This document shows, one piece after another, positions 13,228 to 33,106 of a DNA stretch of 64,000 nt. The notes under the pieces were generated by a model. The model was not told the DNA's origin. It saw nothing but the letters and a program-made list of their open reading frames with translations, and ran no database searches. This stretch comes from Escherichia phage myPSH1131. The position numbers and the translations under genes were made by a program. The DNA lies in sequence record MG983840.1; one strand, 5' to 3'. The stretch's first letter is position 1. Each line of letters begins with the position of its first letter.

Positions 13228-13256
13228 AAGGGAGCTTCGTGCTCCCTTTTCTTGTT
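13228..13256 (+). terminator. rho-independent terminator
   Basis: Stem GGGAGC / GCTCCC with TTCGT loop, then TTTT. Confidence 0.6.
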
Positions 13257-13273
13257 TATTATAAGGAGGGTCT

Positions 13274-14242: not shown

Positions 14243-14243
14243 T

Positions 14244-15275: not shown

Positions 15276-15287
15276 CAAGGAGATATT

Positions 15288-16070
15288 ATGGCAATTAAAA
15301 TGGGTATTGAAGAACTAGACCCAATGGTTCAACAGGCTTCAAAGAAGTATGGGATTCCTGCTGCTTTGATTCATGCTGTAATCCAAAGAGAGTCTAGTGG
15401 TCGTCCTACAGTAGCTTCTGGAACTGGTCCTGTAGGTTTAATGCAAATCAGTAAAGGGTTGGCTAAAGACTACGGATATAAATTGGAAGATAGATTGGAC
15501 CCAGCAAAGAATATTGATATGGGTGCTCGGTATATCAGAGACAACCTAAAAGCTTTTAACGGTGACGTCAAGAAAGCAATGGTTGGTTATTCAGAAGGTA
15601 TCGGCGGAGCTAAGCAAATGTTCGCTGGTAAAAGAGGGTTTACTCCACAGGCTCTTGATTCAATGAACAATAAACACTTTCTTCCTTTCTATGGTGATGC
15701 AGCTTCTCAGATTGCTAACCCTATTGGAGCTTTGCAAGCTGTTCAACCAGTTAACCAGTTTAGTCCGGATACTCTTGATAGAGAGAAGGCTGCTCAAGCT
15801 CCGACTCAGGCAGAAATTGCTGCTTCTAAGACTGGTGCTTTAGGCGGCAATCCAGTAGAGTTTTACTCTGATGAAGCACAGGAAGGAGAAGATCAGAAGC
15901 CTCAACAGAACTTTGGTAATGCAGTATTAGGAGTAGCTGCTATGCTTGCTGGTAAACCTCCTACTTCTCAAACAGTTCAGAGGGCAAGTGCACCACATGC
16001 AGCAGGTTCTCAGTACAGTCCACAAACACAAGCAGTGCTCAGACGTTTGGCTAGCATTGGTGTGAAGTAA
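15288..16070 (+). CDS. virion-associated lytic transglycosylase (SLT domain)
   Basis: SLT signature ESSGRPTVASGTGPVGLMQI. Confidence 0.6.
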   Translation: MAIKMGIEELDPMVQQASKKYGIPAALIHAVIQRESSGRPTVASGTGPVGLMQISKGLAKDYGYKLEDRLDPAKNIDMGARYIRDNLKAFNGDVKKAMVGYSEGIGGAKQMFAGKRGFTPQALDSMNNKHFLPFYGDAASQIANPIGALQAVQPVNQFSPDTLDREKAAQAPTQAEIAASKTGALGGNPVEFYSDEAQEGEDQKPQQNFGNAVLGVAAMLAGKPPTSQTVQRASAPHAAGSQYSPQTQAVLRRLASIGVK

Positions 16071-16089
16071 TAATCGTTAAGGAGGACTT

Positions 16090-17142
16090 ATGTCTTTATT
16101 TGGAAAATCAGCTTCTAGCAAAACCACAGTGGCTCCTTCCTCTCAGGTTGATGCCCTGCTGAAGCAGATTGTTGCTAATGCTCAGAATATGCAGAACAAC
16201 GATCAGGGTTTTATTTCCCAACAGCTGGCTGGGTTCAATGGCAACCAACAAGGTGCTCTGAATAACTTAGCAGCTTCCACAACTCAAAAACAATTGGCTA
16301 ATATGTACACACCTCGTACACAGCAAGGATTGGACCAACTAAATGCTCTTGCCCAACAGTATCAGAATATTGTTAATAGTGGTGGAGTGACGGCTGAAGG
16401 GGTTAATAACTTTAGTAAAGGTTTGAATAACTCAGCTCTTGCACAAGCTACTAGCAAAGCAGCTTCTAATGTCTCTCTTGGTAATGGCTCTGACTCTGGC
16501 TCTCTCCGTAGGGCTGCGGCTCAAGGGGCTGCTTTGAATGGTGCTAACACTAACCTGTCTCGTACTATCAGTGGCAAGAATATGGGGATCAGTGCTCTTC
16601 AACAAGACCAAAACTTCCAGAGAGGCTTACTTGGTGCTCAGTCAGGGTTAGCTGGACAGAATCTCAATCTTGGTGCTCAAGGTGTTCAGGCAACTCAACA
16701 GGCTATTCAGAATCAGCTCATGGCTGGTAATTTACAACAGCAGCAAGCTCAGGCTCAAGCTGATATCAATTGGCAGAACGCTATTGGCTCTCAGCAGTAT
16801 GGATGGAATCAGCTTAACAACCAGCTTAATGTACTAAACAGTGTAAGTCCAATGGCTGGATACACAATTAAGAATGCTGCTCCGGGAGTTAATGTTGGAC
16901 AGCAGCTCCTAGGTGCTGGTATCACTGGATTAGGTATTGCAGGTCGTATGGGTGCTTTCTCTCCTAATCAACAGACTCAGAATGCTTGGAGTTCCTATAA
17001 CAACTCAGGTGGGCAATCTGGAATGGCTGGTCCTATGATTGGGGGTTCTAATCTTTCTCAACAGAGAGGTCAGTCTAACTGGTTATCCACAGCAGGTAGT
17101 AATATCTTAGGTGGTGTCTTAGGGGCATTTGGAGCAAACTAA
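16090..17142 (+). CDS. internal virion protein A (Q/N/G-rich)
   Basis: 350 aa, begins MSLFG; SD AAGGAGGA. A paralogous second copy is at 23310..24263. Confidence 0.4.
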   Translation: MSLFGKSASSKTTVAPSSQVDALLKQIVANAQNMQNNDQGFISQQLAGFNGNQQGALNNLAASTTQKQLANMYTPRTQQGLDQLNALAQQYQNIVNSGGVTAEGVNNFSKGLNNSALAQATSKAASNVSLGNGSDSGSLRRAAAQGAALNGANTNLSRTISGKNMGISALQQDQNFQRGLLGAQSGLAGQNLNLGAQGVQATQQAIQNQLMAGNLQQQQAQAQADINWQNAIGSQQYGWNQLNNQLNVLNSVSPMAGYTIKNAAPGVNVGQQLLGAGITGLGIAGRMGAFSPNQQTQNAWSSYNNSGGQSGMAGPMIGGSNLSQQRGQSNWLSTAGSNILGGVLGAFGAN

Positions 17143-17154
17143 AGGAGAATATCT

Positions 17155-18123
17155 ATGTCACTTTTTGGTGGAGGCGGAAGTAAAACTACTTCCCAAATGA
17201 TTCGTCCTGAATACATTCAACAGTATATTGACCAGCTTAATAAGCAGATTGGTAATACCAGTTCAGGGGATTATGTTTATCGAGATAATGTAGGGTTTAA
17301 TAATAACCAGACAGAGGCACTTAACAACTTAGCACAATCTGGTGCTCTAGGAACTCTCTCACAGCAGTATATGGATGCAGCAGGTCAAGGGTTAGGGTAT
17401 CTAGATAATGCCTATAAAGGCTATCAGAGCCTCTCTGGACAAGGTGGGATTACTGGAGAACAGATTGGTGCTCTCGCTGGTCAATTATATGATGATGACG
17501 CTGTGCAAGCAGCCATTACAGCTAATAATGAACAAGTTCAACAGAATCTAGCACGTAATGCTCTTCCTCAGTTAGCTCAGCAGTATGCTGGTCAGCAAGG
17601 TTCAGGTGCTCGTATGGCTAAATCTTTTGCCCAAGGTGATGCTCTGAATCAGATGCAAGGGCAAGCAACAGATATTACCAACAGTGCCTATAACTCGGCT
17701 ATTAGTCAAGCTGAAAGCATTCTCTCTGGTAATAGACAGAATCAGGCAGCTGCTCTCTCTGGTCTTTCTACTATTGGTTCTAACCTTTCTAACCTAGGTC
17801 AGCAGGGTGCTAATTTGTCTCAACAGCAAATGATGAATCAATGGAATGCAGGATTGCAGCAACAACAGCAACAACAGAATGAATATGATAATGCCTACCA
17901 GAATGCTCAGAACGCAGCTAATTGGGGATGGCAAGATATCAACAACCAACTCGGTGCAGCAGGTGTACTTAACGGTGCTCTCGGACAAACTACAACCACT
18001 AAAACCTCTGGTGGCAAAGGTGGTTTCCTTGGTGGAGCTATGAGTGGTTCAGCAGCAGGCTCTTCCTTTGGGCCTTGGGGTGCATTAGCTGGGGGTCTAA
18101 TCGGTGGGTTGGCTAGTACTTAA
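17155..18123 (+). CDS. internal virion protein B (Q/N/G-rich, paralog of A)
   Basis: 322 aa, begins MSLFGGGG; a second copy is at 24667..25635. Confidence 0.4.
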   Translation: MSLFGGGGSKTTSQMIRPEYIQQYIDQLNKQIGNTSSGDYVYRDNVGFNNNQTEALNNLAQSGALGTLSQQYMDAAGQGLGYLDNAYKGYQSLSGQGGITGEQIGALAGQLYDDDAVQAAITANNEQVQQNLARNALPQLAQQYAGQQGSGARMAKSFAQGDALNQMQGQATDITNSAYNSAISQAESILSGNRQNQAAALSGLSTIGSNLSNLGQQGANLSQQQMMNQWNAGLQQQQQQQNEYDNAYQNAQNAANWGWQDINNQLGAAGVLNGALGQTTTTKTSGGKGGFLGGAMSGSAAGSSFGPWGALAGGLIGGLAST

Positions 18124-18136
18124 TTAGGAGATAAAT

Positions 18137-19786
18137 ATGCAACAGACAACTTACGCTCAGGTCAGAAGTCGTGACCCGAGAAATACTTTCTATGGTGTTA
18201 ATCCGGGAGCGGCTTCGGCCTCTCCTTATATGGCTAGACCCGTTCAGACAGCAGATATTTCTATGTATCAACGACCTGCTGTACCTGCTGGGTTATCTGC
18301 TCTTGTAGGTCAAACTTCAGTTGATTATCAGAATATGTTGAATCCTGTTCAGAGTAATGGTCTTCCTTCTGACATTCCGAATGATGTACAACCTCAATCA
18401 CAACAGGCTGTAACTCTTCCTGAGTTTGAGAACCAAGAAACCATGCAAGCTGCTGGACTTTCTCCTTCTGCTATTCCTCAAGAATCAGAACCTCTTCCGG
18501 TAACACCTCCTACTAAACCGCTAGAAGCTGGTCCTATGGAGTTTACTCCTTCTCAGGTAGAACAGGCACAAGGTGTGATTAACACTCTTGCTCAAGGACA
18601 AGACACTGGTGATGGAATGGCTGCTGCTACTCGTGCTAAAGATCAAGAGCGTGTTAACAACGATATCTTGCAAGTTGCGAAAGCTAAAGACCCTTCAGAA
18701 GCTTGGAACAAACTACAGAAAGAACCATTCTATCAGAACTCTAGTTTCTATACAGGTTTGATGGGTGTAGGTCTTTCCATTATGTCAGGTAAGTCTCCTA
18801 TTGAAGCTTTCCAGATTGGTCAGGGAATGGCTAATCAGGATGAGACTAAGAAGCAACTGGAAGCTAACCGTGATGCCTTGATTGAACAAGGCTTCTCTCA
18901 AGACTCGATCGCAGCTGCTATTGCTAACGGAGACCCGTCTCTACTGAAGATGAGAGCTGTAGACCCTGCTCAGAAAGAAGCGCTGTATGCTGCTCGTGAA
19001 GAACGACAAAATGCTGAATGGGATAGACGTCAACAGATTCAAGAGCAAACTATGCGTGAGCGTGCTGATGAAACTCGTCGTGCCGCTGAAGAAAGAGCTA
19101 ACATGAACTTTGAACGTCAGAAAGAGTTGATTGGTTATCGTGATAAGGTTAAGGCTGAACGTGCTGAACAAGCTGCTCAGAGTTTTAACTTTAACCCGAA
19201 AGAAGTTCGTCTTGCTCAGAATACAGCTGAAGGTACGGTTGCTAAGCAGTGGGCAGAGAAAGGTGGCCTGTTTAACCAGTCTAACAAAGACTTGGATTTG
19301 GCTGATAAAGCTGTTAAGGATAAAGACTATCAGACAGCTCGTTCTGCTTACATGCAGGCTATCATGAACTCTGCAAGGGCTGAAATCGGTGCTACTCGTT
19401 CTCTTACCGAAGAAGACTTAGGGCACTTTGCAGAAGACCCATCAATCTTCGTTCGTGTTGGCAACAAGTTTGCACTGAAATCTGGATGGCGTCCTACTGA
19501 TTCTGCTCTTGCTTATGCTCGTAAGCAAGCTAACGTTGGTCACACCTCTGCAATGAAAGGTGTTGCTGATGCTAAGAGAGCTACGATTGAAGCTTACATC
19601 GGTTCTGGTATGGATAAGAAGAGAGCTACTGCATTGGTTAACCGTGCAATCCCTTCTGGTGGTTTCTATGACCCTCTAGGTGTTTTCTCTGAACAAGCAG
19701 AAGAAGCAGTTGGTGGTGCAGTAACCAATCCTAAGCTTAATGGTGCTTTATCAGCTGTCGAAGACACTAGCTGGTTCACTCAATAA
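18137..19786 (+). CDS. internal virion protein C
   Basis: 549 aa; a truncated second copy is at 25649..26482. Confidence 0.4.
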   Translation: MQQTTYAQVRSRDPRNTFYGVNPGAASASPYMARPVQTADISMYQRPAVPAGLSALVGQTSVDYQNMLNPVQSNGLPSDIPNDVQPQSQQAVTLPEFENQETMQAAGLSPSAIPQESEPLPVTPPTKPLEAGPMEFTPSQVEQAQGVINTLAQGQDTGDGMAAATRAKDQERVNNDILQVAKAKDPSEAWNKLQKEPFYQNSSFYTGLMGVGLSIMSGKSPIEAFQIGQGMANQDETKKQLEANRDALIEQGFSQDSIAAAIANGDPSLLKMRAVDPAQKEALYAAREERQNAEWDRRQQIQEQTMRERADETRRAAEERANMNFERQKELIGYRDKVKAERAEQAAQSFNFNPKEVRLAQNTAEGTVAKQWAEKGGLFNQSNKDLDLADKAVKDKDYQTARSAYMQAIMNSARAEIGATRSLTEEDLGHFAEDPSIFVRVGNKFALKSGWRPTDSALAYARKQANVGHTSAMKGVADAKRATIEAYIGSGMDKKRATALVNRAIPSGGFYDPLGVFSEQAEEAVGGAVTNPKLNGALSAVEDTSWFTQ

Positions 19787-19806
19787 GACCTAAGTCCTGC
19801 CTTCTA

Positions 19807-19815
19807 TAATGTATA
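19807..19815 (+). promoter_or_regulatory. TAATGTATA promoter motif
   Basis: Exact motif, 39 nt upstream of the ATG at 19854. Confidence 0.5.
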
Positions 19816-19853
19816 TAGGGGGTAGGACATTTTTATTTATAAAAGGAGACGTT

Positions 19854-22800
19854 ATGGCTAACATTAAACCGTGGGAAGAAGCTTCCAAAGCTCCTGCGTA
19901 TCTGAATGCCTCTCCGGAGCAACAAGCTCAAATGAGAGAACAATATAAGGCAGCAGGTGGCTCTATTCCTGAGGAACAACCAGTAGCACAACCACAACAA
20001 GAAGAACGTGGTGCTATAGGTGAGTTTGCTCAAGGTGTGTCAAATGCTCTTCAATCTGGTGGTGCAAATATTGCAGCTAGTGCTGCTAAAGGTATTGGTG
20101 GTTTAGTTGAGATTGGTGAGAATCTAGCTGGAGCACAAACTAGTTATGGTAAGCGTATCCAAGAGAACTCTCAGAATCTTCTGAAAGAACGTATGGATAA
20201 GATTGAGGATGGGATTGGTAAAACTGTCGGTCAGTATGCTGGCGTTGCTGGTGATATCGGTTTGACAGTTGCTAACCCATTGGCTGCTGCTGCTATCATC
20301 GCAGGTCGTGAGACAGGTCGTGCATATGCAGACCAAACCCCTGAAGAGGGAGAAGATAAGTCTATTCTAGATGCAGCCTTAGTTGGTGGTGCTAACTATG
20401 CGGCTCAGAGAATCCTTCCGGGTGCTGTCGGTACAGCTGAGTCCACACTTGGACGTATTGGTCAGAACGTTGCTAGTAACGCAGTGGCTGGTGCTAAAGG
20501 TGGCGCTCTTGTGGGTGCTGCTGAAGCTCAGAACAAGCATGGAGATGATACAACCTTTGCTAATGTATTAGAGGGTGCTATCGAAGAAGGTGCTATGGGT
20601 GCTGCATTCGGTGGTGCAGTTGGTGGAGTTCATGGTTTGATTAGCCGTCCAGATTCTGCTGTCTTCAAGAATACTCCAGAGTATGCGAAGACTGATATTG
20701 CTGCTGATGATGAACTAATTCGTAGTGCTAAGAATATTGATGAACTGAAAGAAGCTTACTCTAAAGCTGAAACTGCTAACGCTGCTTCTGCTCTGAATCT
20801 TCTGGATGAGAATGGATTCCGTATTACAGATGCTGTTGCTGTGGATTCTCCTGCTGCTCAGCGTATTCTTAATACTGACCAAGCTCGTGCTGAGAAAGCT
20901 GCTTCTGTTCAGAAAGAACATTCCAACATTCCGGGCCTTAATCCTTTAGCTTCTCCTGCTAAGACTCGTGGTAAAGCATTTGCTGATAATGAGCACAACC
21001 AGAAGCAGGCTGTTGCTATGAAGGATGCAATGGCTGACTACACCAAAGACAACACGAAAGCTCTTACAGATGTTCTAGATAACCTAGACCGTGAATTAAC
21101 TTCTCTCCGAGCTTCTGGTGATTTTACTGGTAGTCCGATTGATATTAAGAATCGTACACAAGCTGACCGTGATTTCATTGATGCTTACAAGACTTTCTAC
21201 AATGAAGCAAATCGATTCAAAGCTCGTGAAGGTGAAGATTTTAATAACTTTGTAGAGAAAGCTACTGAACTACAGAAGATGGCTGATAATGTTTCTCCAG
21301 AGATGAAGAAAGCTATCGGTGGGTTGAAGAAACTGAAAGGTATGCCTGAAGGTTTTAATCCTATTCAAGATGCTTATACTCTGAACAATACAGCTAAATT
21401 CATGAGCAACCAAGATCGTGGTTGGACTTCCTTGACTGATGATGGATTCCGTGAAGCTTCTTCACCTAGTCTGGTAATGAACACTCTTGGTGCTGCTAAG
21501 TATGCTCTGAATCGCTTCTCTTCTCAGCGTGCTCGTTCTCAACGTGTTAAGCAACAAGAATCTAACAGTGAAGCTATCCGCTCTCTTGCTCGTGGTGATT
21601 TGGAAGTTGCTCGTGCTAAATCTACTGCTGATGAAGCTCGTGCTAAGATGGAAGAAGAACCAGTTGTTGATGACATTAAATTTAAGACGCAAAATGACGT
21701 AGAAACCGAACCGGTTCGGGAGCCTTCTTCTAGTACTGTGACGGAAGAAAATCTTCCTTCTTCTACTCCTCAAGAGACTCCTCTTACAGCTCGTGATTTA
21801 GTTGCGCAAAGACGCGCTATCCGTCAGGCTGAACAGCGTCGCGCTGAAGAAGAGGCATTGGCTGCTCAAGAAGCTCCGGTCGAACAGGCTCCACAGGCTG
21901 AACCTCTCCCTGCTCGTAACCCTCTAGAGGAGCGTCGTGCAATGGAACAGCAACGTGCTCAAGAAGAGGCCGCACAGGCTCCAGAACCTACCGTAGAGGA
22001 ACCAACAGTCAAAGCTGAGCCATTACCTGCCCGTGCTCCTAAAGCTCCTAAGGAAGCTGTACAGGACGTTAAACCGGCAAGTGGTGTAGAACGTTTAGCT
22101 GCTATGTCTAGTGCTGCTCGTCAGGCTACTAAAGATCGTGCAGAACGCTTTGCTCGTTCTCTGTACTCTAAGGCTGCTAAAGCTAAAGCTACTGCTGAAA
22201 ACTTCTTGGCTTATAAAGGTGATCCTAAGGAACTGATGCGTCGTATTCGTCAGGAAGATAATGCTATCAACACTGAACGTCATGAAGAAATGGCTCGTAA
22301 CCAGTTGGCTTCTCAGCAAGGTATTGCTACTGCTAAGAACAACACTGTACGAACTAATTTTGCTGAATGGGTTAAGGAACGTGGTCTGCCAGAAGACATT
22401 GCTACTAAGGCATTACGTGCTGAAGAGAAAGGTTTAGGTGGGAACGTAACTAACTTGGATAGTCTGAAACGTCGTGCTGAAAGGTTGTATCAGAAGCAGC
22501 GTGAAGATGAGTTTGATAGACTGTACCAACAAGCTCTAGAAGAGAATAAAGCTTTCGATAACAAGAATGCTCCTAAGCTGGTTGACCAGAAGAAAGAGCT
22601 TCAGTCTGAGATTGATACTTTGATTGATGCAGAACCTTTACGTCCTGCTCAGAAAGACGCTATGCGTAAATTGATGAATGACTTTGTAGATGGAAAGTTT
22701 AAATCTTCAGAGAAGGCTGGTAGGGAAGAGGCTTTGGAAGTTGGTCAGATGAAGGATATTTGGGATGGGTTTATTAACACCTATAACAGAGAAGTGAATG

Positions 22801-23201
22801 CCTTCAACAAAGCTAACAAGAACTCTCAGTACGAAGCTGCTGCTAAGCATTTACAGGCTCGTGAAGAACGTCTTGCTACACTCAGGAAAAAGGCTCAGGC
22901 TCGTTCGGATGCTAAAGCTGCTGTTGAGAATGAACGTAAAACTCTAGAGGCTATTGCAGCTCAGAAGAGTGAGATTGAGAAGATGATGGAAGGTTTACCT
23001 AAACCTGTTCGTGAGGCTCAGGAATCTCGTACACTGAAACAGTTGGCTGCTCACCACGATAAGAACTCTCCAGTTCCTCCAGAGAAGTTCCGTAGTTACA
23101 TTGAACGTATCCATAACGCCGAGTCAGACTACCTTGATCGTCAGCGTCGTTTAACTGATGCAGAGGAAGATGCTCGTCAGGCTAAGTGGAACAAGATGTA
23201 G
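19854..23201 (+). CDS. large internal virion / ejection protein (about 1115 aa)
   Basis: Start moved to the ATG preceded by SD AAAGGAGA; the track start at 19809 overlaps the promoter. Ala/Glu-rich with coiled-coil regions. Confidence 0.45.
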   Translation: MANIKPWEEASKAPAYLNASPEQQAQMREQYKAAGGSIPEEQPVAQPQQEERGAIGEFAQGVSNALQSGGANIAASAAKGIGGLVEIGENLAGAQTSYGKRIQENSQNLLKERMDKIEDGIGKTVGQYAGVAGDIGLTVANPLAAAAIIAGRETGRAYADQTPEEGEDKSILDAALVGGANYAAQRILPGAVGTAESTLGRIGQNVASNAVAGAKGGALVGAAEAQNKHGDDTTFANVLEGAIEEGAMGAAFGGAVGGVHGLISRPDSAVFKNTPEYAKTDIAADDELIRSAKNIDELKEAYSKAETANAASALNLLDENGFRITDAVAVDSPAAQRILNTDQARAEKAASVQKEHSNIPGLNPLASPAKTRGKAFADNEHNQKQAVAMKDAMADYTKDNTKALTDVLDNLDRELTSLRASGDFTGSPIDIKNRTQADRDFIDAYKTFYNEANRFKAREGEDFNNFVEKATELQKMADNVSPEMKKAIGGLKKLKGMPEGFNPIQDAYTLNNTAKFMSNQDRGWTSLTDDGFREASSPSLVMNTLGAAKYALNRFSSQRARSQRVKQQESNSEAIRSLARGDLEVARAKSTADEARAKMEEEPVVDDIKFKTQNDVETEPVREPSSSTVTEENLPSSTPQETPLTARDLVAQRRAIRQAEQRRAEEEALAAQEAPVEQAPQAEPLPARNPLEERRAMEQQRAQEEAAQAPEPTVEEPTVKAEPLPARAPKAPKEAVQDVKPASGVERLAAMSSAARQATKDRAERFARSLYSKAAKAKATAENFLAYKGDPKELMRRIRQEDNAINTERHEEMARNQLASQQGIATAKNNTVRTNFAEWVKERGLPEDIATKALRAEEKGLGGNVTNLDSLKRRAERLYQKQREDEFDRLYQQALEENKAFDNKNAPKLVDQKKELQSEIDTLIDAEPLRPAQKDAMRKLMNDFVDGKFKSSEKAGREEALEVGQMKDIWDGFINTYNREVNAFNKANKNSQYEAAAKHLQAREERLATLRKKAQARSDAKAAVENERKTLEAIAAQKSEIEKMMEGLPKPVREAQESRTLKQLAAHHDKNSPVPPEKFRSYIERIHNAESDYLDRQRRLTDAEEDARQAKWNKM

Positions 23202-23309
23202 TAGAGAAAGACTAGCTTAAAAGAGGAACCTCATGAGGAATAAGAACGAAGATTGTAAGTATAGTTCAAACCGAGGTCATAATATAATAGATTTCATAAG
23301 TATTAGAAT

Positions 23310-24263
23310 ATGCAGAACAACGATCCGGGATTCATCTCCCAACAGCTGGCTGGGTTTAATGGCAACCAACAAGGTGCTCTGAACAACTTAGCAGCTTCTA
23401 CTACTCAGAAGCAATTGGCTGATATGTACACACCTCGTACACAGCAAGGGTTGGACCAATTAAATTCTCTTGCACAGCAGTATCAGAATATTGTCAATGG
23501 TGGTGGTCTAACTGCTGATGGTGTTAATAACTTTAGTAAAGGATTGAATAACTCAGCTCTTGCTCAAGCGACTAGTAAGGCAGCTTCCAATGTATCCCTC
23601 GGAAATGGTTCTGATTCAGGCTCTCTCCGTAGAGCTGCTGCTCAAGGTGCTGCTCTGAACAGTGCTAATACAAACTTAGCTCGTACTATCAGTGGCAAGA
23701 ATATGGGAATCAGTGCTCTTCAACAAGACCAAAACTTCCAGAGGGGCTTACTTGGTGCTCAGTCAGGATTGGCTGGACAGAATCTCAATCTTGGTGCTCA
23801 AGGTGTTCAGGCAACTCAACAAGCTATCCAGAATCAACTCATGGCTGGTAATCTACAACAGCAACAAGCCCAAGCTCAAGCTGATATTAATTGGCAGAAC
23901 GCTATTGGCTCTCAACAGTATGGGTGGAATCAGCTTAACAACCAACTTAATGTATTAAATAGTGTAAGCCCAATGGCTGGGTACACGATTAAGAATGCTG
24001 CTCCGGGGGTTAATACTGGACAACAGCTCCTAGGTGCTGGTATCACTGGATTAGGTATTGCAGGTCGTATGGGTGCTTTCTCTCCTAATCAACAGACTCA
24101 GAATGCTTGGAGTTCCTATAACAACTCAGGTGGGCAATCTGGAATGGCTGGTCCTATGATTGGTGGTTCTAATCTTTCTCAACAGAAAGGTCAGTCTAAC
24201 TGGTTATCCACAGCAGGTAGTAATATCTTAGGTGGTGTCTTAGGGGCATTTGGAGCAAACTAA
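23310..24263 (+). pseudogene. second copy of protein A lacking the first ~34 codons
   Basis: About 93% aa identity to A from residue 35 onward; no SD, and unrelated sequence upstream. Confidence 0.5.
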
Positions 24264-24275
24264 AGGAGATTTGAT

Positions 24276-24665
24276 ATGAGTATGGAGTCTAAAGGATATA
24301 AAGACCCTGCCAAATACGAAGCTTATCTTGAAAGACAGAGAGATTATAAGAGACGTAAAAGGGTCGAGGGTGACCCTTGGTATGATCCTGAAAAAGTGAG
24401 AGCTAAGAATCTCCAAAAGATGTATGGGATATCTCATGAAGAATATGAGAAAATGTGGGAAGAACAAGAAGGGCTTTGCAAGATCTGTGGTAATCCAGAG
24501 AGTGTTAAACTTAAAGGTGTGGTTAAGCTACTAGCTGTAGATCATTGTCATTTATCTGGCAAGGTTCGTGGTCTTCTTTGTAATAACTGCAACAGAGCGA
24601 TAGGTATGCTTAAGGATGACCCTGAGATACTTCGTCGTGCTGCTAGCTATTTAGAGGAGATATAA
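24276..24665 (+). CDS. HNH homing endonuclease (free-standing)
   Basis: HNH motif DHCHLSGKVRGLLCNNCN. It lies between the A and B paralogs, which are directly adjacent in the first copy. Confidence 0.75.
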   Translation: MSMESKGYKDPAKYEAYLERQRDYKRRKRVEGDPWYDPEKVRAKNLQKMYGISHEEYEKMWEEQEGLCKICGNPESVKLKGVVKLLAVDHCHLSGKVRGLLCNNCNRAIGMLKDDPEILRRAASYLEEI

Positions 24666-24666
24666 T

Positions 24667-25635
24667 ATGTCGCTTTTCGGAGGCGGGGGTAGTAAAACTA
24701 CTTCCCAAATGATTCGCCCTGAATACATTCAACAGTATATTGACCAGCTTAACCAACAGATTGGTAATACTAGTTCAGGGGATTATGTTTATCGGGACAA
24801 CGTAGGATTTAATAATAACCAAACAGAGGCACTTAATAACTTAGCACAATCTGGCGCTTTAGGCACTCTCTCACAGCAATACATGGATGCAGCAGGTCAA
24901 GGGTTAGGTTATCTGGATAATGCCTATAAAGGCTATCAGAGCCTCTCTGGACAAGGTGGGATTACTGGAGAACAGATTGGTGCTCTCGCTGGTCAACTGT
25001 ATGATGATGACGCTGTGCAAGCAGCCATTACAGCTAATAATGAACAGGTTCAACAGAACTTGGCACGTAATGCTCTTCCTCAGTTGGCTCAACAGTTTGC
25101 CGGTCAACAAGGTTCAGGTGCTCGTATGGCTAAGTCTTTTGCCCAAGGTGATGCTCTGAATCAGATGCAAGGGCAAGCAACAGATATTACCAATAGTGCA
25201 TATAACTCGGCTATCAGCCAAGCTGAAAGCATCCTCTCTGGTAATAGACAGAATCAGGCAGCTGCTCTCTCTGGTCTTTCTAATATTGGTTCTAACCTTT
25301 CTAACCTAGGTCAGCAGGGTGCTAATTTGTCTCAACAGCAAATAATGAATCAATGGAATGCAGGGTTGCAGCAACAACAGCAACAACAGAATGAATATGA
25401 TAATGCCTACCAGAATGCTCAGAACGCAGCTAATTGGGGATGGCAAGATATCAATAACCAACTCGGTGCAGCAGGTGTACTTAACGGTGCTCTCGGACAA
25501 ACTACAACTACTAAAACATCTGGTGGCAAAGGTGGTTTCCTTGGTGGAGCTATGAGTGGTGCAGCAGCTGGCTCTTCCTTTGGACCTTGGGGTGCATTAG
25601 CTGGGGGTGTAATCGGTGGGTTGGCTAGTACTTAA
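24667..25635 (+). CDS. second copy of protein B
   Basis: 322 aa, about 97% aa identity to B; SD GAGGAGA. Confidence 0.4.
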   Translation: MSLFGGGGSKTTSQMIRPEYIQQYIDQLNQQIGNTSSGDYVYRDNVGFNNNQTEALNNLAQSGALGTLSQQYMDAAGQGLGYLDNAYKGYQSLSGQGGITGEQIGALAGQLYDDDAVQAAITANNEQVQQNLARNALPQLAQQFAGQQGSGARMAKSFAQGDALNQMQGQATDITNSAYNSAISQAESILSGNRQNQAAALSGLSNIGSNLSNLGQQGANLSQQQIMNQWNAGLQQQQQQQNEYDNAYQNAQNAANWGWQDINNQLGAAGVLNGALGQTTTTKTSGGKGGFLGGAMSGAAAGSSFGPWGALAGGVIGGLAST

Positions 25636-25648
25636 TTAGGAGATAAAT

Positions 25649-26482
25649 ATGCAACAGACAACTTACGCTCAGGTCAGAAGTCGTGACCCGAGAAATACTT
25701 TCTATGGTGTTAATCCGGGAGCGGCTTCGGCCTCTCCTTATATGGCTAGACCAACTCAGACAGCAGATATTTCTATGTATCAACGTCCTGCTATACCTGC
25801 TGGGCTTTCCTCTCTTATAGGTCAAACTTCAGTAGATTATCAGAATATGTTGAATCCTGTTCAGAGTAATGGTCTTCCTTCTGATATCCCAAATGATGTA
25901 CAACCTCAAGCACAACAGGCTGTAACTCTTCCTGAGTTTGAGAATCAAGAAACCATGCAAGCTGCTGGACTTTCCCCTTCTTCTATTCCTCCAGAATCAG
26001 AACCTCTTCCGGTAACACCTCCTACTAAACCGTTAGAAGCTGGTCCTATGGAGTTTACTCCTTCTCAGGTGGAACAGGCACAAGGTGTGATTAATACTCT
26101 TGCTCAAGGACAAGATACTGGTGATGGAATGGCTGCTGCCACTCGTGCTAAAGATCAGGAACGTGTTAACAACGATATATTGCAAGTTGCGAAAGCTAAA
26201 GACCCTTCGGAAGCTTGGAACAAACTACAGAAAGAACCATTCTACCAAAACTCCAGTTTCTACACAGGTTTGATGGGTGTAGGTCTTTCCATTATGTCAG
26301 GTAAGTCTCCTATTGAAGCTTTCCAGATTGGTCAGGGAATGGCTAATCAAGATGAGACTAAGAAGCAACTGGAAGCTAACCGTGCGTCATACATCCCAAT
26401 TCTCTTCAGAAGTCTGGATGTTCATCTTCAAAGCATCCTGAGATGCCTCCATAGAACCAATCCGATTTACTTCCAAGGATAA
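25649..26482 (+). pseudogene. second copy of protein C, 3'-truncated at a junction
   Basis: Matches C for about 245 aa, then diverges after LEANR at about 26385 into unrelated sequence. Confidence 0.5.
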
Positions 26483-26676
26483 CAACTTCTTCATTCATAT
26501 ACCCTCCTAGATTGTGTTTATAAAATTAGTAAGTTTCTCTTCACTTTCATCAAAAGCTTTTCCAGCTGCTTCCATCTCCCAAGTATCGGCATTGTCAATA
26601 AAGCTCTGAGCTTCTAATAGGTCGTGGATTAAGTCGAAGAGTTTATTTTTATCTGCTTGTGTGATCATGTCAGTTC

Positions 26677-26904
26677 CTAGATTAAATCGTAATACTGAAT
26701 AATGTCAGAGAGTTTGAACTCTCGAATCTCATCTTTCTCTACATCTATCGCTGTCATAATCCAACAAGGTTTGCCACCGTTATGAAAACGGGAGCTAGCA
26801 ACGGAGGTTCGGAGTGGAATAACGGACCGGTCAGCAACCTCGCCTCTCCAATTGCGATAGCGAAAGCGAAGCACTTGTTGCGTAGATTTTTGATCATCAC
26901 TCAT
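26677..26904 (-). CDS. hypothetical protein
   Basis: Track ORF trimmed to an internal ATG so it no longer overlaps the HNH gene; contains FRYRNWRGEV. Confidence 0.25.
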   Translation of the reverse strand: MSDDQKSTQQVLRFRYRNWRGEVADRSVIPLRTSVASSRFHNGGKPCWIMTAIDVEKDEIREFKLSDIIQYYDLI

Positions 26905-27298
26905 TTCCTTTTTTGAATTGTTTTCTTGCATCATTCTCTTCTTTTGTTTTAATCTTATGACAAGGGTCTTTACACAGAACCTGAAAACCTTCTTTCTCAC
27001 ACAGAGCACGAGAGATGATCTCATCCCAAGTGGCTTCATGGTCAAGAGGAACTATAGGCTCTATGTGGTCAATAGCCATATCCTTTACAGGGTGGTCAGA
27101 ACCACACATGGCACACTTAAAGTGCATTGCCAGTCTACCTGTCTTTGGATTAATCTTCTGCTCTGTCTTGGCGTCTGCTAGTGCATCGAACATGGGCTTC
27201 CACTTTCTAGTCAGAGAACGAATCCCTGACTTGATAAAAGAATTGTAACGAGCTTCAGTCCACATTCCAGAGCATCTAGTCTTCTCAGCCTTCGCCAT
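26897..27298 (-). CDS. HNH endonuclease
   Basis: CAMCGSDHPVKDMAIDHIEPI ... LCKDPCHKIK HNH signature. Confidence 0.7.
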   Translation of the reverse strand: MAKAEKTRCSGMWTEARYNSFIKSGIRSLTRKWKPMFDALADAKTEQKINPKTGRLAMHFKCAMCGSDHPVKDMAIDHIEPIVPLDHEATWDEIISRALCEKEGFQVLCKDPCHKIKTKEENDARKQFKKGNE

Positions 27299-27476
27299 AA
27301 CCTACACTCATATCATCTTCTTCCCATACACGTTTATCTACTCGGTGTGATACTTTTTCACGTTTTTCTTTAATATAGCGGTTGCCTAATTCGTGGCTAT
27401 ATTTAATACGCTGCTCTTTACGAGATTCACGGTTGGAGGAGTTTTCATCATATGAACGATAATCAAATTTACCCAT
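27285..27476 (-). CDS. small basic hypothetical protein
   Basis: 63 aa ORF; the same sequence recurs at about 33110-33290. Confidence 0.25.
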   Translation of the reverse strand: MGKFDYRSYDENSSNRESRKEQRIKYSHELGNRYIKEKREKVSHRVDKRVWEEDDMSVGYGEG

Positions 27477-27489
27477 TATAATATCCTTA

Positions 27490-28332
27490 TTACCAAGATT
27501 TATCTAACCATGTCCAGTCGAACAGGTCTTCCGGAGTCTGACCAACAAAGAGCAGCCGAGCATTCTCAAGCATCTTCTCTTCATCTTCAGTATCGAACTT
27601 CTTATAATATTCCATTCGTACTATATGATACATGGTCCATCTATCTGTAACACCAGCCAACAGACTAGCTGCTGCTTTCTTCCCTATTCCTTGACGTCGA
27701 AGCTGAAGCTTACCACCCCACATAACCTCTTTACGTTCCCCACATCCGGGGATGTTATCCGTACCATCTCCAATCAACATTTGATAGAAGAAGTTTTGCC
27801 ATGAAACTAAATCAGATACGTAATGAGGAGGGACTTCTTTCTGTCTTTCTCCACAAGCCCAGCGATAATGCCATCCGGGAGTTATCAACAAATCCTTGTC
27901 TCTAGTACAGATGATAGTATTCTTATCCCTACGTTGCCTTTCAGCTAGTGCATCATCAGCCTCTCTCCCAAAGACCTCAATGTATTCGTACTTGGCTTTA
28001 ATGTAATCACCAACGTTTTGCCAGTGAAAAGGTCTTTCTCCGGGAGGTCTGTTTGCCTTGTAGTCTTGTTGCTTAGCAACATCGAAACGGAAGTTACCGC
28101 CTTCGCTGAAGTAGAATACAACCTTACTACAACCCGAGCGAGCTATAATTGTATCAATCTTGTACTGAAGTCGTTCAATCATGAAATTGTAATCAACTGG
28201 AACACGTCCTGTGTCAAGGAAGGGATGCTCCTGAGTAAGAGCACCCACTTCATACCGAAGAACGTCAGCGTCCACTATAGCAACTTCAGGGAGCTTAACT
28301 TCTTCCATAAATATCATCCTGAGCTTGAGCAA
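27490..28332 (-). CDS. 5'-3' exonuclease / flap endonuclease (FEN family)
   Basis: GDGTDNIPGCG and the helix-3-turn-helix GIGKKAAASLLAG; acidic PIN-like N-terminal region. Confidence 0.7.
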   Translation of the reverse strand: MLKLRMIFMEEVKLPEVAIVDADVLRYEVGALTQEHPFLDTGRVPVDYNFMIERLQYKIDTIIARSGCSKVVFYFSEGGNFRFDVAKQQDYKANRPPGERPFHWQNVGDYIKAKYEYIEVFGREADDALAERQRRDKNTIICTRDKDLLITPGWHYRWACGERQKEVPPHYVSDLVSWQNFFYQMLIGDGTDNIPGCGERKEVMWGGKLQLRRQGIGKKAAASLLAGVTDRWTMYHIVRMEYYKKFDTEDEEKMLENARLLFVGQTPEDLFDWTWLDKSW

Positions 28333-29184
28333 TAATCCAATCTAGGTCTGATACTGCTGATTCAATAGTTGAGTCATTAAACAGTAGATATGTTTTTCTC
28401 TGTTCGCCTTCAATATACGAGCGAGAATCTCTATCAAAAGAACAACCATCTCTAAGAACTTGGACAACTTGGACATTGAAATTCTTTTCTAGTTCTCGTA
28501 CCTCTGCATCAAAGCCTCCGTCAGTGAAAACAATAATGTCGTCCTGACCCAGCCCTTCTTGTTTGATGCTCTCTACAGCAAGATTCCCCATATGGTTGTT
28601 GCCAAACATAGGTTTTAAGAAGTCTTCACTTGTAGAAATCATCAAATCTCTTACAGACTTCCCTCCCCATTCTGGTCTAGGCTTTTCTTTCCATTCACGA
28701 TCTTCATAGAGTGCTAGAAAGTTTTCTAGAGGCATACCCAATGCAGCAGCAGCTACATTATACATCGGCTCCTTGAAAGACTTGGTTGAATATCCATGAT
28801 GGTATGAGTGTGCATTTACCCAAGCACTAGCTATCGTATCTTTACCACAACCCGGAGGCCCATTAAGAATTACCACTAAAGGTTTATATTGGGAGCATTC
28901 CACCATATTAGTCAGTGCTGGATTGCCTTGAGATTCCATTTCTAATTGCTCCGTGTGGTCATGTGAGTAGTCTACTGGAGAAGTTTTGTTACCAGTAACT
29001 TTAGGTAAAATCGCTCTAGTTGTTTCTACGTATTTACCGCCATCAATATTGATTTGAAACTCTACAAGCTCATTCTGTAACTCATATCCTGATAAGTTGG
29101 ATAGCTCCTCCAACTCATCTCTGACGAAATTTAAATGTTTGATTTTAATTGCAAGAGCTTTCTTTAAAGCTTTTACCTCTTCAT

Positions 29185-29194
<10 letters not shown>
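28295..29194 (-). CDS. P-loop kinase, dNMP-kinase-like
   Basis: Walker A ILNGPPGCGKDT; the GKDT form is shared with T4-type dNMP kinases. Coiled-coil N-terminus. Confidence 0.45.
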
Positions 29195-30478
<1,284 letters not shown>

Positions 30479-30721
30479 AATGCATCTCTTTATAAATAGT
30501 TTCCGTGTTCTTCTTCCAGTTAGATAAACCGGTAAGAACCCTCTGAGCAACTTCATCAGCTGCCCTACTTCTTTCAATCTCTAACTCTTGCTGGTGCTTC
30601 TCTTTGTCCAGATTACTGCTGTCTGTTTGGTACTCGTTAAACTTCATACCACCAAAGAATACAAGAGCTGAGAAAATGATAAACCCTATATTATCACTTA
30701 ATGTACTTTGCATACTGTCTC

Positions 30722-30748
30722 CAACGAAAAAAGCCACCCGAAGGTGGC
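30722..30748 (-). terminator. rho-independent terminator after the SSB gene
   Basis: Minus strand reads AGCCACC-TTCG-GGTGGCT followed by TTTTTT. Confidence 0.6.
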
Positions 30749-30770
30749 TAAGCTATAACAAGGAGAGTTA

Positions 30771-31517
30771 TCAGAAAGGCGAATCGTTATCATCTTCATA
30801 AGTAGAAGCAGGCTCTTTATCAATCGTAGGAATTGAAGGAGTAGCTTCTTTCTGTTCTGTTTCAGAAGCACGAGTAATTTCACGACCAGCCAGAGGCATG
30901 TTCTTAGCGTCATTAGCTTGAGTAAGCAGATTGCGCTGGAACGGGAACATCAGTTGATAAGATGCTACGTTCTCGTCGGTTTCAGCATACGGTTCGAAGA
31001 ATACCAGAGGACTACGAGCTTCACCAACTGCTGCACGATATTTAGTTGGGATTGGAGAAATGGTCTTGATGGAGTTTTTAACTTCACCAGCTTTGTTAGT
31101 GTAAGAGTTAACCAGAATGTTAACAGGCTGACCTAACAGAACATCCTTGAACCAAGACAGATCACCTTTCAGTGCTTGAATACTTGGGTCAACCATCTTG
31201 CAAAGATCAAGAATACCAGAGTTCTTAGCTCGTGGGTTTACATCATAGCTCTTGAACTGGCAAGCCGGACGTGGTTCTAATGCCTTACCATCGGAATCTT
31301 TACCAGTAGCATCAACACCAATCAGCTCGAAAGCTAAATCCATACGGAAAGCCGGATTCTTAGGAGTTACTGCTTTGGTCTTCGGGTCAATCCAAGGGTC
31401 ACGATTGTGAACACCCAAACCTACTACACGAACGATACGTGCTTCGTATTCACCATCAGGGATTACATCGTAGTTGGATTTACGGGAAGAAGTTGCGATA
31501 GTTGGAATCATAGACAT
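30771..31517 (-). CDS. ssb: single-stranded DNA-binding protein
   Basis: 248 aa with an acidic C-terminal tail ending EDDNDSPF, as in SSB interaction tails. Confidence 0.5.
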   Translation of the reverse strand: MSMIPTIATSSRKSNYDVIPDGEYEARIVRVVGLGVHNRDPWIDPKTKAVTPKNPAFRMDLAFELIGVDATGKDSDGKALEPRPACQFKSYDVNPRAKNSGILDLCKMVDPSIQALKGDLSWFKDVLLGQPVNILVNSYTNKAGEVKNSIKTISPIPTKYRAAVGEARSPLVFFEPYAETDENVASYQLMFPFQRNLLTQANDAKNMPLAGREITRASETEQKEATPSIPTIDKEPASTYEDDNDSPF

Positions 31518-31576
31518 AGTGTAATTTCCTTATTTAATTTGAAAGATTGTTGCTCTCTTTGAGCGGTTATGTATAA

Positions 31577-31585
31577 TATACATTA
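31577..31585 (-). promoter_or_regulatory. TAATGTATA promoter motif (minus strand), upstream of ssb
   Basis: Plus strand shows TATACATTA; about 60 nt upstream of the SSB start. Confidence 0.45.
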
Positions 31586-31768
31586 CATATATAGTGTAGG
31601 AACTACCGGAAGGTAGTAGGTTTTGTCCAAACAAAAGTCTCTTTAGAATTATTTGTTGGAGATTGTCTCTTATAAACCCGAGACTGCCTAGCAGTTACAT
31701 AAGCTCTAGCTTTTTCTGTAGCTGCATACTTATGGTTAAATTTCATGGTAGTATATCTCTAAGTGCTA

Positions 31769-31777
31769 TAATGTATA
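31769..31777 (+). promoter_or_regulatory. TAATGTATA promoter motif with no annotated downstream ORF
   Basis: Exact motif on the plus strand inside a ~560 bp non-coding interval. Confidence 0.35.
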
Positions 31778-31899
31778 TAAGTTATAGCTGATAAAGTTAT
31801 TGCACGGGACTGACGACGATAAGGCGCAGACGACAATCTCTCATAAGTTTGTAAGAAATTGAGAGACTACCGGAAGGGCAGGAGCCACCTGCGAGATAA

Positions 31900-31965
31900 A
31901 AATAGAGAATTAAGGAATCCTTGATTTAGGTTGTAGGGACTCCTAGGGACTTTGATTCTCTATTT
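31900..31965. repeat. structured element: 11-bp perfect inverted repeat flanking internal palindromes
   Basis: AAATAGAGAAT ... ATTCTCTATTT separated by 44 nt; inside are AAGGAATCCTT and TAGGGACTCC TAGGGACTTT. Confidence 0.5.
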
Positions 31966-32079
31966 AAAAGAATATTAATTACTTATTACCTAAATAATTA
32001 ACTAACTTACTTAAACCAAATTCAATAAGAATAGATAAAAAGATTATTCCTAAGAAAGCTAAAAAGTAAAGGATATAAG

Positions 32080-32244
32080 TTACCATTCAAGTAAACCTTT
32101 AAAGTTAGATTTTTCTACTATCCTCTGATAACGAAGATTAGAATCAGCTTGTTTCTTTAACATCTCATTATACTGATCTCTGATAGAGTCTTTATGTACT
32201 ACAGGTTCTTTAAATAACGAGATCTTGTTCTTTTCTTCTTTCAT
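32080..32244 (-). CDS. hypothetical protein
   Basis: Track ORF trimmed to an internal ATG (MKEEKNK...). Confidence 0.25.
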   Translation of the reverse strand: MKEEKNKISLFKEPVVHKDSIRDQYNEMLKKQADSNLRYQRIVEKSNFKGLLEW

Positions 32245-32713
32245 CAAAGACCTTCCTAATCTCTTGCAGAGAAACAGCTTTATAGTTAATTTGCTCCATT
32301 GATGTACAGAAATATCTCCAATCATCAATTACGTGGTTATGAGTATGAGCATAAATATTAAACTTCCCTCTCATCTCATCAGTGTGAATAGGAATATGAG
32401 TTACCCAAAACTCTTTATATTTATAATCACCAGAGATTCTACGGAAGACTTTCATCATATCAGGGAGAAGTTCTAACCTGTCATGGTTCCCTAAGACTAG
32501 ATGCTTCTCTCCTCTTACTTCAGCGATGATATCAAGGGCATACTTTTCAAACACCCAATCACCGGTAAAGAAGATTTTATCACGTTTAGTTACATGATCA
32601 AATGCAGCTAGGATTGCTTTGTCATGTTCTTCGATGGTTTTAAATTGCTTACGAAAACTACAGATGTTGCGATGGCCTAAGTGACCATCCCCTGCAAAAT
32701 AAACTTCAGCCAT
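32210..32713 (-). CDS. metallophosphoesterase (calcineurin-like)
   Basis: GDGHLGH and GNHD metal-binding motifs. Confidence 0.6.
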   Translation of the reverse strand: MAEVYFAGDGHLGHRNICSFRKQFKTIEEHDKAILAAFDHVTKRDKIFFTGDWVFEKYALDIIAEVRGEKHLVLGNHDRLELLPDMMKVFRRISGDYKYKEFWVTHIPIHTDEMRGKFNIYAHTHNHVIDDWRYFCTSMEQINYKAVSLQEIRKVFDERRKEQDLVI

Positions 32714-32722
32714 AAAGACCTC

Positions 32723-33106
32723 TTAGATAGTTAATTTGTGATCTTCCTCCGCTCTGTTTCTAACAGAGACGGCTTCTTCTAGGGTTGAGAAAGTTCCTAG
32801 GTATTTAGTTTTACCTTTACAGAGAAGCTTGACTTTATTTAATCGAGCACTCCGTTGTAAGAGTTCGACTAAGGAGTGATAAAAGAAAAGCCCTCGAGGA
32901 GAAATCCAAGAGGGTTTATCACACTTAAAGTGCATTGCCAATCTTCCTGTCTTTGGATTAATCTTCTGCTCTGTCTTGGCGTCTGCTAGTGCATCGAACA
33001 TGGGCTTCCACTTTCTAGTCAGAGAACGAATCCCTGACTTGATGAAAGAGTTGTAACGAGCTTCAGTCCACATTCCACTACAGCGAGTCTTCTCAGACTT
33101 CGCCAT
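32723..33106 (-). pseudogene. HNH N-terminal region joined to an AP2-like C-terminus (hybrid, HNH catalytic motif lost)
   Basis: First ~62 aa match the HNH at 26897..27298; then a junction to YLGTFSTLEEAVSVRNRAEED (AP2-like). Confidence 0.4.

Follow-up and report, generated by a model that had tools for sequence, protein, structure and literature searches.

The second copy of genes A, B and C in the sequence of Escherichia phage myPSH1131 is very probably a contig from a related coliphage, concatenated to its neighbours by reference ordering. Because this related-coliphage fragment would have been inserted through reference-guided contig ordering, we consider it an assembly artefact, and neither a duplication nor a feature of the phage genome. 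The stretch that we analysed (64,000 nucleotides, hereafter the window) corresponds to bases 1-64000 of GenBank MG983840. Indeed, 79 of the 80 ORFs listed in Table A of the myPSH1131 paper are found as clean ORFs at identical coordinates in the window, against 0.02% for a random placement.

We confirmed that a second A-B-C copy is present in the sequence file, far above chance. Self-BLAST of the window aligned positions 16184-17148 with 23305-24269 (965 nt, 92.3% identity, gap-free, E = 0) and positions 17140-18872 with 24652-26384 (1734 nt, 94.9% identity, E = 0), and a separate repeat search of the window concurred on both pairs. These two values agree with the original prediction that A-B-C recurs after gene D at around 90-95% identity, and the second C, which was said to be cut off at about 26385, loses its homology at 26384. 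The second A was described as lacking its first 34 codons: it does start at codon 34, and 33 codons, not 34, are absent, because the ORF of A' encodes 317 aa vs 350 aa for A. The offsets of the two repeat pairs are unequal, 7121 for A/A' vs 7512 for B-C/B'-C', and the approximately 382 extra nucleotides between A' and B' correspond to an endonuclease VII gene. At the other end of the block, C' is identical to C for 238 of 245 amino acids, without gaps, and covers positions 1-251 of the 551 positions of the phrog_12130 profile, its ORF continuing to 26482 as a fusion tail in unrelated backbone sequence. The features of the region are collected in Table 1.

Table 1. Genes, gene fragments and spacer of the A-B-C-D region and of the second A-B-C copy in the window
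Feature	Coordinates	Strand	Description
Gene A, backbone	16090..17142	+	350 aa; DNA ejection protein family phrog_4287, E = 3e-117; ES17 gp022; published ORF10
Gene B, backbone	17155..18123	+	322 aa; paralogue of A, phrog_4287; ES17 gp023; published ORF11
Gene C, backbone	18137..19786	+	549 aa; phrog_12130; ES17 gp024
Gene D, truncated	19809..23201	+	1130 aa; ES17 gp025 (1473 aa); TAG TAG at junction
Spacer	23201..23304	.	104 nt separating D from A'; no homologue found
A'	23305..24269	+	gene A fragment from codon 34; ORF 23310-24263, 317 aa; published ORF13
Endonuclease gene	24276..24665	+	129 aa; predicted endonuclease VII / HNH type, free-standing, between A' and B'
B'	24667..25635	+	complete B orthologue of the donor phage, 322 aa; published ORF14
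C'	25649..26384	+	donor gene C codons 1-245 (45%), cut at contig end
Backbone resumption	26385..32731	-	ES17 29011-35356, 99.84%; early/middle genes; published ORF15 26387-26494

The two copies do not have the same relatives. The backbone is almost that of phage ES17, with 99.92% identity over 19.8 kb without gaps (99.8-100% across the backbone), and its gene A is 99.9% identical to ES17 20758-21810; gene B was named "DNA injection protein" in the published myPSH1131 annotation. The second block is closer to another phage, MN03: A' is 99.6% identical to MN03 28924-29897 vs 92.3% to the backbone A, and B'C' is 97.8% identical to MN03 vs 94.9% to the backbone. A segmental duplication would leave the two copies more similar to each other than to any other sequence; here, MN03 is a nearer relative of the second copy than the first copy is. 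Moreover, the codon differences are mostly silent, with 61 synonymous and 10 non-synonymous between A and A', and 42 and 6, respectively, between B and B'. Substitutions between the copies are therefore 85-88% synonymous, and the copies thus diverged as functional genes within separate genomes. Both observations rule out a duplicate born in this genome and then decayed, or mutated in silico, and they uphold the earlier proposal of an origin in a related phage rather than in a recent duplication. From its sequence, A' derives from a second, MN03-like Kuravirus. The edges of the block disregard genes, as A' begins at codon 34, C' ends at 45% of gene C and D is cut at 76%.

The product of the gene located between A' and B' matches the Pfam family PF02945 (Endonuclease_7) with 90.6 bits, for a cut-off of 23.6, and phrog_2914 (E = 5e-34), and it carries the metal-binding and catalytic motif CKIC...DHCH...CNNCN (CxxC...DHCH...CNNCN). 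Its ORF begins where the start codon of B would be, and a second ribosome-binding site then serves B'. The gene was not found in the backbone, ES17, MN03 or myPSH2311, while a homologue (45.6% protein identity) occupies the equivalent site between A and B in Kuravirus PAS59. By its domain and motif, and by this presence or absence of the insertion among relatives, it is a predicted free-standing homing endonuclease of the endonuclease VII (HNH) type. Among the phage proteins found, none exceeds 59% identity to it; in IMG/VR, no close relative was found in an A/B context, the best match (54%) lying in an unrelated context, and an exact-protein look-up gave no match. Like the free-standing endonuclease VII/HNH genes of other phages (T7-like gp13.5; PAS59), it encodes an Endonuclease_7 domain with a CxxC...DHCH...CxxCN motif in a small ORF set between conserved genes and patchily distributed among close relatives. 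The predicted endonuclease belongs to the donor fragment and not to the backbone phage. The analysis has a real by-product: the donor fragment reveals an MN03-like Kuravirus which had not been sampled before and whose A/B junction contains an endonuclease VII gene, a site which in PAS59 is also occupied, by a distant homologue.

In a profile search, gene D covers positions 1-1115 of the 1473 positions of phrog_14629, so that 76% of the gene is retained and its final 24% is replaced by the A'-C' block. The ES17 homology of D stops at 23200 (ES17 27868), the block stands in place of ES17 27869-29010, and the backbone abuts C' at 26384/26385 without any spacer; the truncation of D is a contig end. 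At 23200/23201 and 26384/26385, no microhomology was found beyond 1-2 nt. We looked for these junctions in several collections. The D/spacer 40-mer has no exact match in IMG/VR, in metagenome contigs or in genome contigs, and the C'/backbone 45-mer has none in IMG/VR. Exact-protein look-ups of the C' fusion ORF and of the truncated D gave no match; nor did a comparison of positions 22000-27500 with E. coli genomes and plasmids. The D/A'-C' junctions were not found among 50,697 phage records (a collection that does not include MG983840), and the order D/A'-B'-C' is in none of the approximately 90 sequenced relatives that match the region. The junctions are therefore without independent support in the collections searched.

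The same architecture extends over the whole contig. The window contains 18 divergent direct repeats of at least 150 nt, amounting to 15.9 kb and up to three haplotypes, and the triplicate copies are three distinct haplotypes. Along the ES17 span, 7.8 kb occur in duplicate and 2.6 kb in triplicate, and another 8.5 kb are absent. We counted 10 backward jumps along the ES17 coordinates, seven of which are bridged by a spacer of 97-110 nt; the order of the blocks is only roughly ascending, ES17 47692-49253 being placed after 51312-52150. At 60392-60543, a perfect 76-nt tandem marks two overlapping contigs that were not merged, and a 1.8-kb deletion junction at 3431 has no spacer. Neither ES17 nor MN03 contains internal repeats of at least 150 nt, and each of them has a single A-B-C-D set. 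The truncation of D, the homing endonuclease within the second copy and the contig-wide extent of this pattern had all been overlooked in the original prediction.

Several related phages were evidently together in the sample, and one could imagine that co-infecting Kuraviruses recombined into a real genome or gave rise to a defective sub-population, with a heterologous A'-endonuclease-B'-C' segment taking the place of the 3' end of D. The putative homing endonuclease of the block could promote recombination near its site. However, the breakpoints are distant from this site and devoid of homology, the arrangement and its junction are absent from the relatives and public collections mentioned above, and the block-plus-spacer pattern is found some 10 times over, as many as three haplotypes being juxtaposed. 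The product would also be deprived of 24% of D, and several genes essential to a genuine genome are absent or incomplete in the rest of the window: the scaffold gene is missing, the capsid gene is reduced to 56% (44% is lost), the portal gene is split and the primase-helicase gene is in three fragments. Thus, the contig as written is no viable genome. We find this scenario hardly credible, and it is equally improbable that D/A'-endonuclease-B'-C' exists in real molecules as a second, heterologous set of ejection-protein genes, acquired from a co-infecting relative, perhaps through breaks made by the endonuclease.

The concatenation of contigs is, on the contrary, in line with the way in which the record was produced. 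The myPSH1131 paper describes a CLC de novo assembly, the scaffolds of which were then processed through CONTIGuator2 to obtain an "arranged complete genome". CONTIGuator builds an ABACAS pseudocontig in the order of the reference and fills the gaps with Ns; the authors' reference for contig ordering was a genome other than ES17. An assembly join had been envisaged in the original prediction as the alternative to test, and this documented arrangement of contigs on a reference supports it, alongside the origin in a related phage. As the contigs were arranged with CONTIGuator2, we infer that the junctions were all made by software. According to this mechanism, the record would be a pseudomolecule ordered on a reference, not a contiguous assembly. 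Illumina reads were assembled de novo by CLC, and CONTIGuator2 then placed the contigs along a reference phage genome, where they would have been joined end to end. At least three related Kuravirus haplotypes would have been present in the DNA that was prepared or in the library. Minor-haplotype contigs overlapping the main ES17-like ones on the reference would therefore have been neither merged nor dropped but written serially, in most cases with a placeholder of around 100 nt in between. The "second A-B-C" would be a 3.1-kb MN03-like minor contig that extends from codon 34 of A to codon 245 of C and includes a natural homing-endonuclease gene between its A and its B. It would have been placed after a main contig ending within D, and the succession of D and A' would be expected in no phage molecule.

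Two joins, at 26384/26385 and at 3431, have no spacer and thus depart from the rule of overlapping contigs plus a 100-nt placeholder. They are, with the haplotypes clearly mixed in the sample, what could be expected if CLC had mis-traversed its de Bruijn graph across strain variants; A'-B'-C' and its flanks would then be a single chimeric contig, which is still an artefact. Yet, such a mis-join would need shared k-mers, which the near absence of microhomology at both block junctions does not provide. Furthermore, the left spacer, with its 104 nt, matches the size class of 10 others in the window and of 13 in myPSH2311, and the CONTIGuator arrangement step is explicit in the paper. We therefore judge a graph error very unlikely as the source of the block. 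Within the reference-ordered concatenation that we favor, some of the joins may go back to the de novo assembly step or to manual editing.

The spacers deserve a closer look. The window contains 11 of them, from 97 to 110 nt, including the D/A' one, and myPSH2311 contains 13, from 94 to 109 nt. The 104-nt spacer shares only chance 13-14-mers with ES17, MN03 and myPSH2311, gives only chance matches among the 50,697 phage records, and a 29-mer internal to it has no exact match in IMG/VR. Most spacers copy other regions of Kuravirus genomes, with numerous deletions. We ruled out that they are divergent natural orthologues, because frame-breaking deletions separate perfectly identical runs. Their sizes are those of a fixed-length placeholder, but they are not runs of N: they consist of letters, there being no N in the window and two in myPSH2311. 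The ABACAS manual is said to give a default placeholder of 100 Ns between overlapping contigs, and we infer that the size of the spacers, around 100 nt, reflects it. In the ABACAS and CONTIGuator papers, gaps are represented by Ns and overlapping contigs are considered; the 100-N convention is not stated there. Some post-processing must be assumed for letters to stand in place of the Ns.

Such lossy-looking copies of other regions, together with text-like runs such as (GCAT)n in the myPSH2311 spacers, could evoke a synthetic or computer-generated sequence, such as a generative model would produce, or a duplication mutated in silico. This is ruled out for the window as a whole by its coincidence with a GenBank record of 2018 that has its own publication. 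As for the block, the second copy resembles MN03, a natural phage, more than its supposed template, the substitutions are codon-aware, and the block holds a well-formed endonuclease gene without close database relative, so that an artificial origin is next to inconceivable. Invention may be limited to the spacers.

The second copy should be given no biological weight, since two A-B-C blocks have been demonstrated in no phage. The finding bears on data quality. MG983840 bears the label of a complete genome, serves as the ICTV exemplar for the species Kuravirus myPSH1131, which was ratified in 2025, and was proposed as the founder of a genus "Vellorevirus" on the basis of whole-genome similarity thresholds. 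Yet, its first 64 kb combine the repeats and losses described above with about a dozen spacers of around 100 nt that are non-genomic sequence. Its sister record MG976803, which is also a species exemplar, presents the same defects. Both records will distort statistics that use them on genome length, gene count, intergenomic similarity and pangenomes, and screens for repeats or "duplications" will go on flagging them.

Among the Kuravirus genomes ES17 (NC_070984), phiEco32, SU10 and MN03, the backbone of the window resembles ES17 in sequence. It also shares the ES17 gene order, i.e., tail genes, transglycosylase, A, B, C, D, and convergent replication genes on the minus strand. In contrast to the window, ES17 and MN03 have every block only once, and their D (1473 aa), scaffold and capsid genes are intact. 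As a whole, the window is organized like a CONTIGuator/ABACAS pseudomolecule: it comes from a documented pipeline, its blocks are collinear with a reference, overlapping contigs are written in series with an overlap left unmerged, and its spacers are of near-constant size. It differs from such a pseudomolecule by its lettered spacers, by some spacer-free joins and by its imperfect order on ES17. The nearest counterpart is myPSH2311 (MG976803), which comes from the same laboratory and the same pipeline. Although it does not contain the A'-B'-C' block, keeps most of the 3' end of D and the scaffold gene, and differs in its block cut points and spacer sequences, it has the same backbone (99.3-100% identity), spacers of around 100 nt and fragmented genes, and it carries three gp078-gp080 haplotypes in tandem, each of them 99.7-100% identical to the copies of the window.

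The second copy of the consecutive virion genes A, B and C in the myPSH1131 record is an assembly artefact. Its presence, claimed in the original prediction, was confirmed by self-BLAST of the window and a repeat search, which delimited two direct repeats: 16184-17148 recurs at 23305-24269 (965 nt, 92.3% identity, gapless) and 17140-18872 at 24652-26384 (1734 nt, 94.9%). The ORFs also agree with the reported shortening of A' and with the loss of homology inside C'. Beyond that description, the offsets of the two repeats are unequal (7121 versus 7512), A' and B' being separated by about 382 nt; D aligns only to positions 1-1115 of the 1473 of its PHROG profile and is therefore truncated; and C' aligns only to positions 1-251 of 551. 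Since A and B both match phrog_4287, they are paralogues. Cross-comparison with PAS59 gave 32-34% amino acid identity between A and B (window 16090-18123) over their N-terminal ~105-124 residues. This pair goes back to an ancient tandem duplication that Kuraviruses share and that has nothing to do with the artefact.

Coordinates of the virion genes, the inserted gene, the spacers and the further repeats in the window
Feature	Position	Strand	Description
A, copy 1	16090-17142		ORF; phrog_4287 'DNA ejection protein'
B, copy 1	17155-18123		ORF; phrog_4287 'DNA ejection protein'
C, copy 1	18137-19786		ORF; phrog_12130
D	19809-23201		ORF; phrog_14629
A'	23310-24263		ORF; first codon is codon 34 of A
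Endonuclease VII / HNH-type homing endonuclease gene, predicted	24276-24665	+	complete, 129 aa; 382-nt insert
B'	24667-25635		full-length ORF
C'	from 25649		homology to C ends at 26384
Spacers 1-6	23201-23304, 34872-34968, 36444-36543, 43970-44069, 47353-47452, 51725-51823		
Spacers 7-11	53386-53485, 55168-55277, 56491-56589, 58706-58803, 62761-62859		
Further divergent repeats	27112-36443, 36544-43969, 47453-53646, 53486-58201, 61480-64000		

The origin of the block (A', the endonuclease gene, B' and C') in a related phage, rather than in a duplication, was also borne out. A' is 99.6% identical to MN03 (4 mismatches in 974 nt) versus 92.3% to copy 1, and B'C' is 97.8% identical to MN03 versus 94.9% to copy 1. 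Synonymous codon differences outnumber non-synonymous ones both between A and A' (61 versus 10, with 59 of 74 differences at third positions) and between B and B' (42 versus 6, with 43 of 51), and C' is identical to C at 238 of 245 amino acids, without gaps. This substitution pattern appears to be that of orthologues kept functional in separate genomes. A duplicate of copy 1 is ruled out by the closer MN03 match, the synonymous differences, the amino acid conservation of C' and the endonuclease gene. Given the closeness to MN03, the orthologue-like differences and the inserted gene, the block is best read, from its sequence, as a natural and contiguous piece of a different, MN03-like phage.

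The predicted endonuclease matches Pfam Endonuclease_7 (90.6 bits against a cut-off of 23.6) and phrog_2914 (E = 5e-34), and carries the motif CKIC...DHCH...CNNCN. Its gene starts at the exact position of B's start codon in MN03, and a second ribosome-binding site, for B', lies downstream. The gene is absent from ES17, MN03 and myPSH2311; in the Kuravirus PAS59, a 149-aa homologue (45.6% amino acid identity) occupies the same site between A and B. Searches of phage records and IMG/VR yielded no close relative, the highest identities being 59% over part of the length and 54% over most of it, respectively. The sole genuine biological novelty, a minor one, would be a putative endonuclease VII-type homing endonuclease at the A/B junction of an unsampled MN03-like Kuravirus.

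The window itself is that of a phiEco32-like podophage (Kuravirus, Gordonclarkvirinae). In a Megablast search, 14000-27000 matched 98 phage records, led by ES17 at 98.6%, and piece-by-piece alignment of the backbone, the main sequence of the record, to ES17 gave 99.8-100% (for instance, 3431-23200 equals ES17 8099-27868 with 16 mismatches and no gap). This backbone is broken by blocks only 87-96% identical to ES17, which re-cover ES17 coordinates already used. Before the block under study, it ends within D at ES17 27868; then come 104 nt without homologue, A' (ES17 20852-21816), the 382-nt insert and B'C' (ES17 21808-23540), after which it restarts at ES17 29011. The block thus takes the place of 1142 nt, including the last 24% of D.

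Such disorder extends over the whole window. We found 18 internal direct repeats no shorter than 150 nt, adding up to 15.9 kb at ~70-100% identity, versus none in ES17 or MN03. At least ten more divergent repeats resemble the A-B-C one (87-96% identity, some in three copies), for example the exonuclease/dNMP-kinase region and gp078-gp080 (three times each), and gp042-gp047 with the DNA polymerase 3' end, the nucleotidyltransferase region and gp084-gp085 (twice each). The triplicated regions consist of three distinct haplotypes (91.9-97.1% pairwise). A perfect 76-nt tandem (60392-60467 and 60468-60543) corresponds to two blocks with a 76-nt ES17 overlap, abutted unmerged; there is also a perfect 208-nt dispersed repeat (47453-47660 and 51863-52070). 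Over ES17 2831-58335, two copies exist of 7.8 kb and three of 2.6 kb; 8.5 kb are missing, including gp009, the scaffold gene, 44% of the major capsid gene, the D 3' end and segments of PhoH, ThyX and the primase-helicase. The losses of gp009, scaffold and capsid sequence stem from a 1.8-kb deletion at 3431 (ES17 6297 to 8099), relative to ES17, MN03 and myPSH2311, in which the major capsid gene loses its first 44%. Block edges nearly always cut genes, leaving 91% of the gene in A', 45% in C', 32, 45, 28 and 45% in the exonuclease fragments and 21% of the DNA polymerase. The portal gene is split in two ORFs (1193-2995 and 2992-3396); at the start of the window, the large terminase is incomplete. 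As it stands, the sequence cannot propagate as a genome. That it reflects a real recombinant molecule is very unlikely, because essential genes are lost, the pattern recurs tenfold with three haplotypes, and the arrangement occurs in no relative or collection searched.

Between blocks lie 11 spacers, stretches of 97-110 nt without a proper ES17 match; of the 10 places where the order jumps back on the reference, 7 are spanned by one of them. The spacer ahead of A' has no homologue in phage records or IMG/VR. Most of the others are deletion-riddled copies of Kuravirus sequence normally 0-6 kb away, in which identical runs of 15-40 bases are parted by frame-breaking deletions of 7-30 nt; these deletions between identical runs rule out diverged orthologues. 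The ABACAS manual reportedly describes 100 Ns between contigs that overlap on the reference. CONTIGuator orders contigs on a reference via ABACAS and outputs a single 'pseudocontig' with Ns in gaps. The library would have contained one dominant phage, ES17-like, together with two or more minor Kuravirus haplotypes, whose contigs, overlapping the main ones on the reference, would have been written after them. The resulting series would be a main contig ending within D, a placeholder of ~100 nt, a minor contig running from inside A to inside C, and the next main contig, which matches the order observed in the window. The spacers consist of letters, with no Ns, and the joins at 26384/26385 and 3431 show neither spacer nor microhomology; later editing or chimeric de novo contigs may account for both the letter placeholders and the spacer-less joins. 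A mis-join within the de novo assembler, which would be the same kind of artefact arising at another step, is less likely, as no microhomology exists at the junctions and the spacer is of a recurrent size.

The myPSH1131 record (MG983840, 76,163 bp) is phiEco32-like and comes from the same laboratory and the same construction as myPSH2311 (myPSH1131 paper). Within 1-64000, the supplement of that paper lists 80 ORFs, and 79 of them run cleanly from start to stop at identical window coordinates, including ORF10 (16090-17142), ORF11 (17155-18123), ORF13 (23310-24263) and ORF14 (24709-25635), versus 0.02% for random placement, and the published base composition is consistent with the window. The window therefore corresponds to positions 1-64000 of MG983840. 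ORF19 is tabulated as 27385-27476, whose length is no multiple of three; the clean ORF is 27285-27476 on the minus strand, and the coordinate printed in the table was probably mistyped. That the window as a whole was generated by computer is excluded by its identity with the 2018 record and by the natural character of the donor fragment; invention is conceivable only for the spacers. A close relative, myPSH2311 (MG976803), has the same architecture, with 13 spacers of 94-109 nt, some containing (GCAT)n-like runs. The same three gp078-gp080 haplotypes stand in tandem in both records (window 53486-58201; MG976803 49779-54524), each 99.7-100% identical between them, with different cut points and spacers. 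These shared haplotypes suggest that both libraries derive from the same phage mixture or were cross-contaminated.

MG983840 and MG976803 are both chimeric pseudomolecules. They are the exemplars of the ICTV species Kuravirus myPSH1131 and Kuravirus myPSH2311, ratified in 2025, and the proposed genus 'Vellorevirus', which unites three phages on whole-genome similarity, has myPSH1131 as its named founder. Similarity values obtained from the two records are likely distorted, and the practical upshot is a curation warning on both. Of four defining features tested for reference-ordered pseudomolecule artefacts, the window displays three and lacks one, the N placeholders; it is with these artefacts, and not with phage gene duplications, that the second A-B-C copy belongs.
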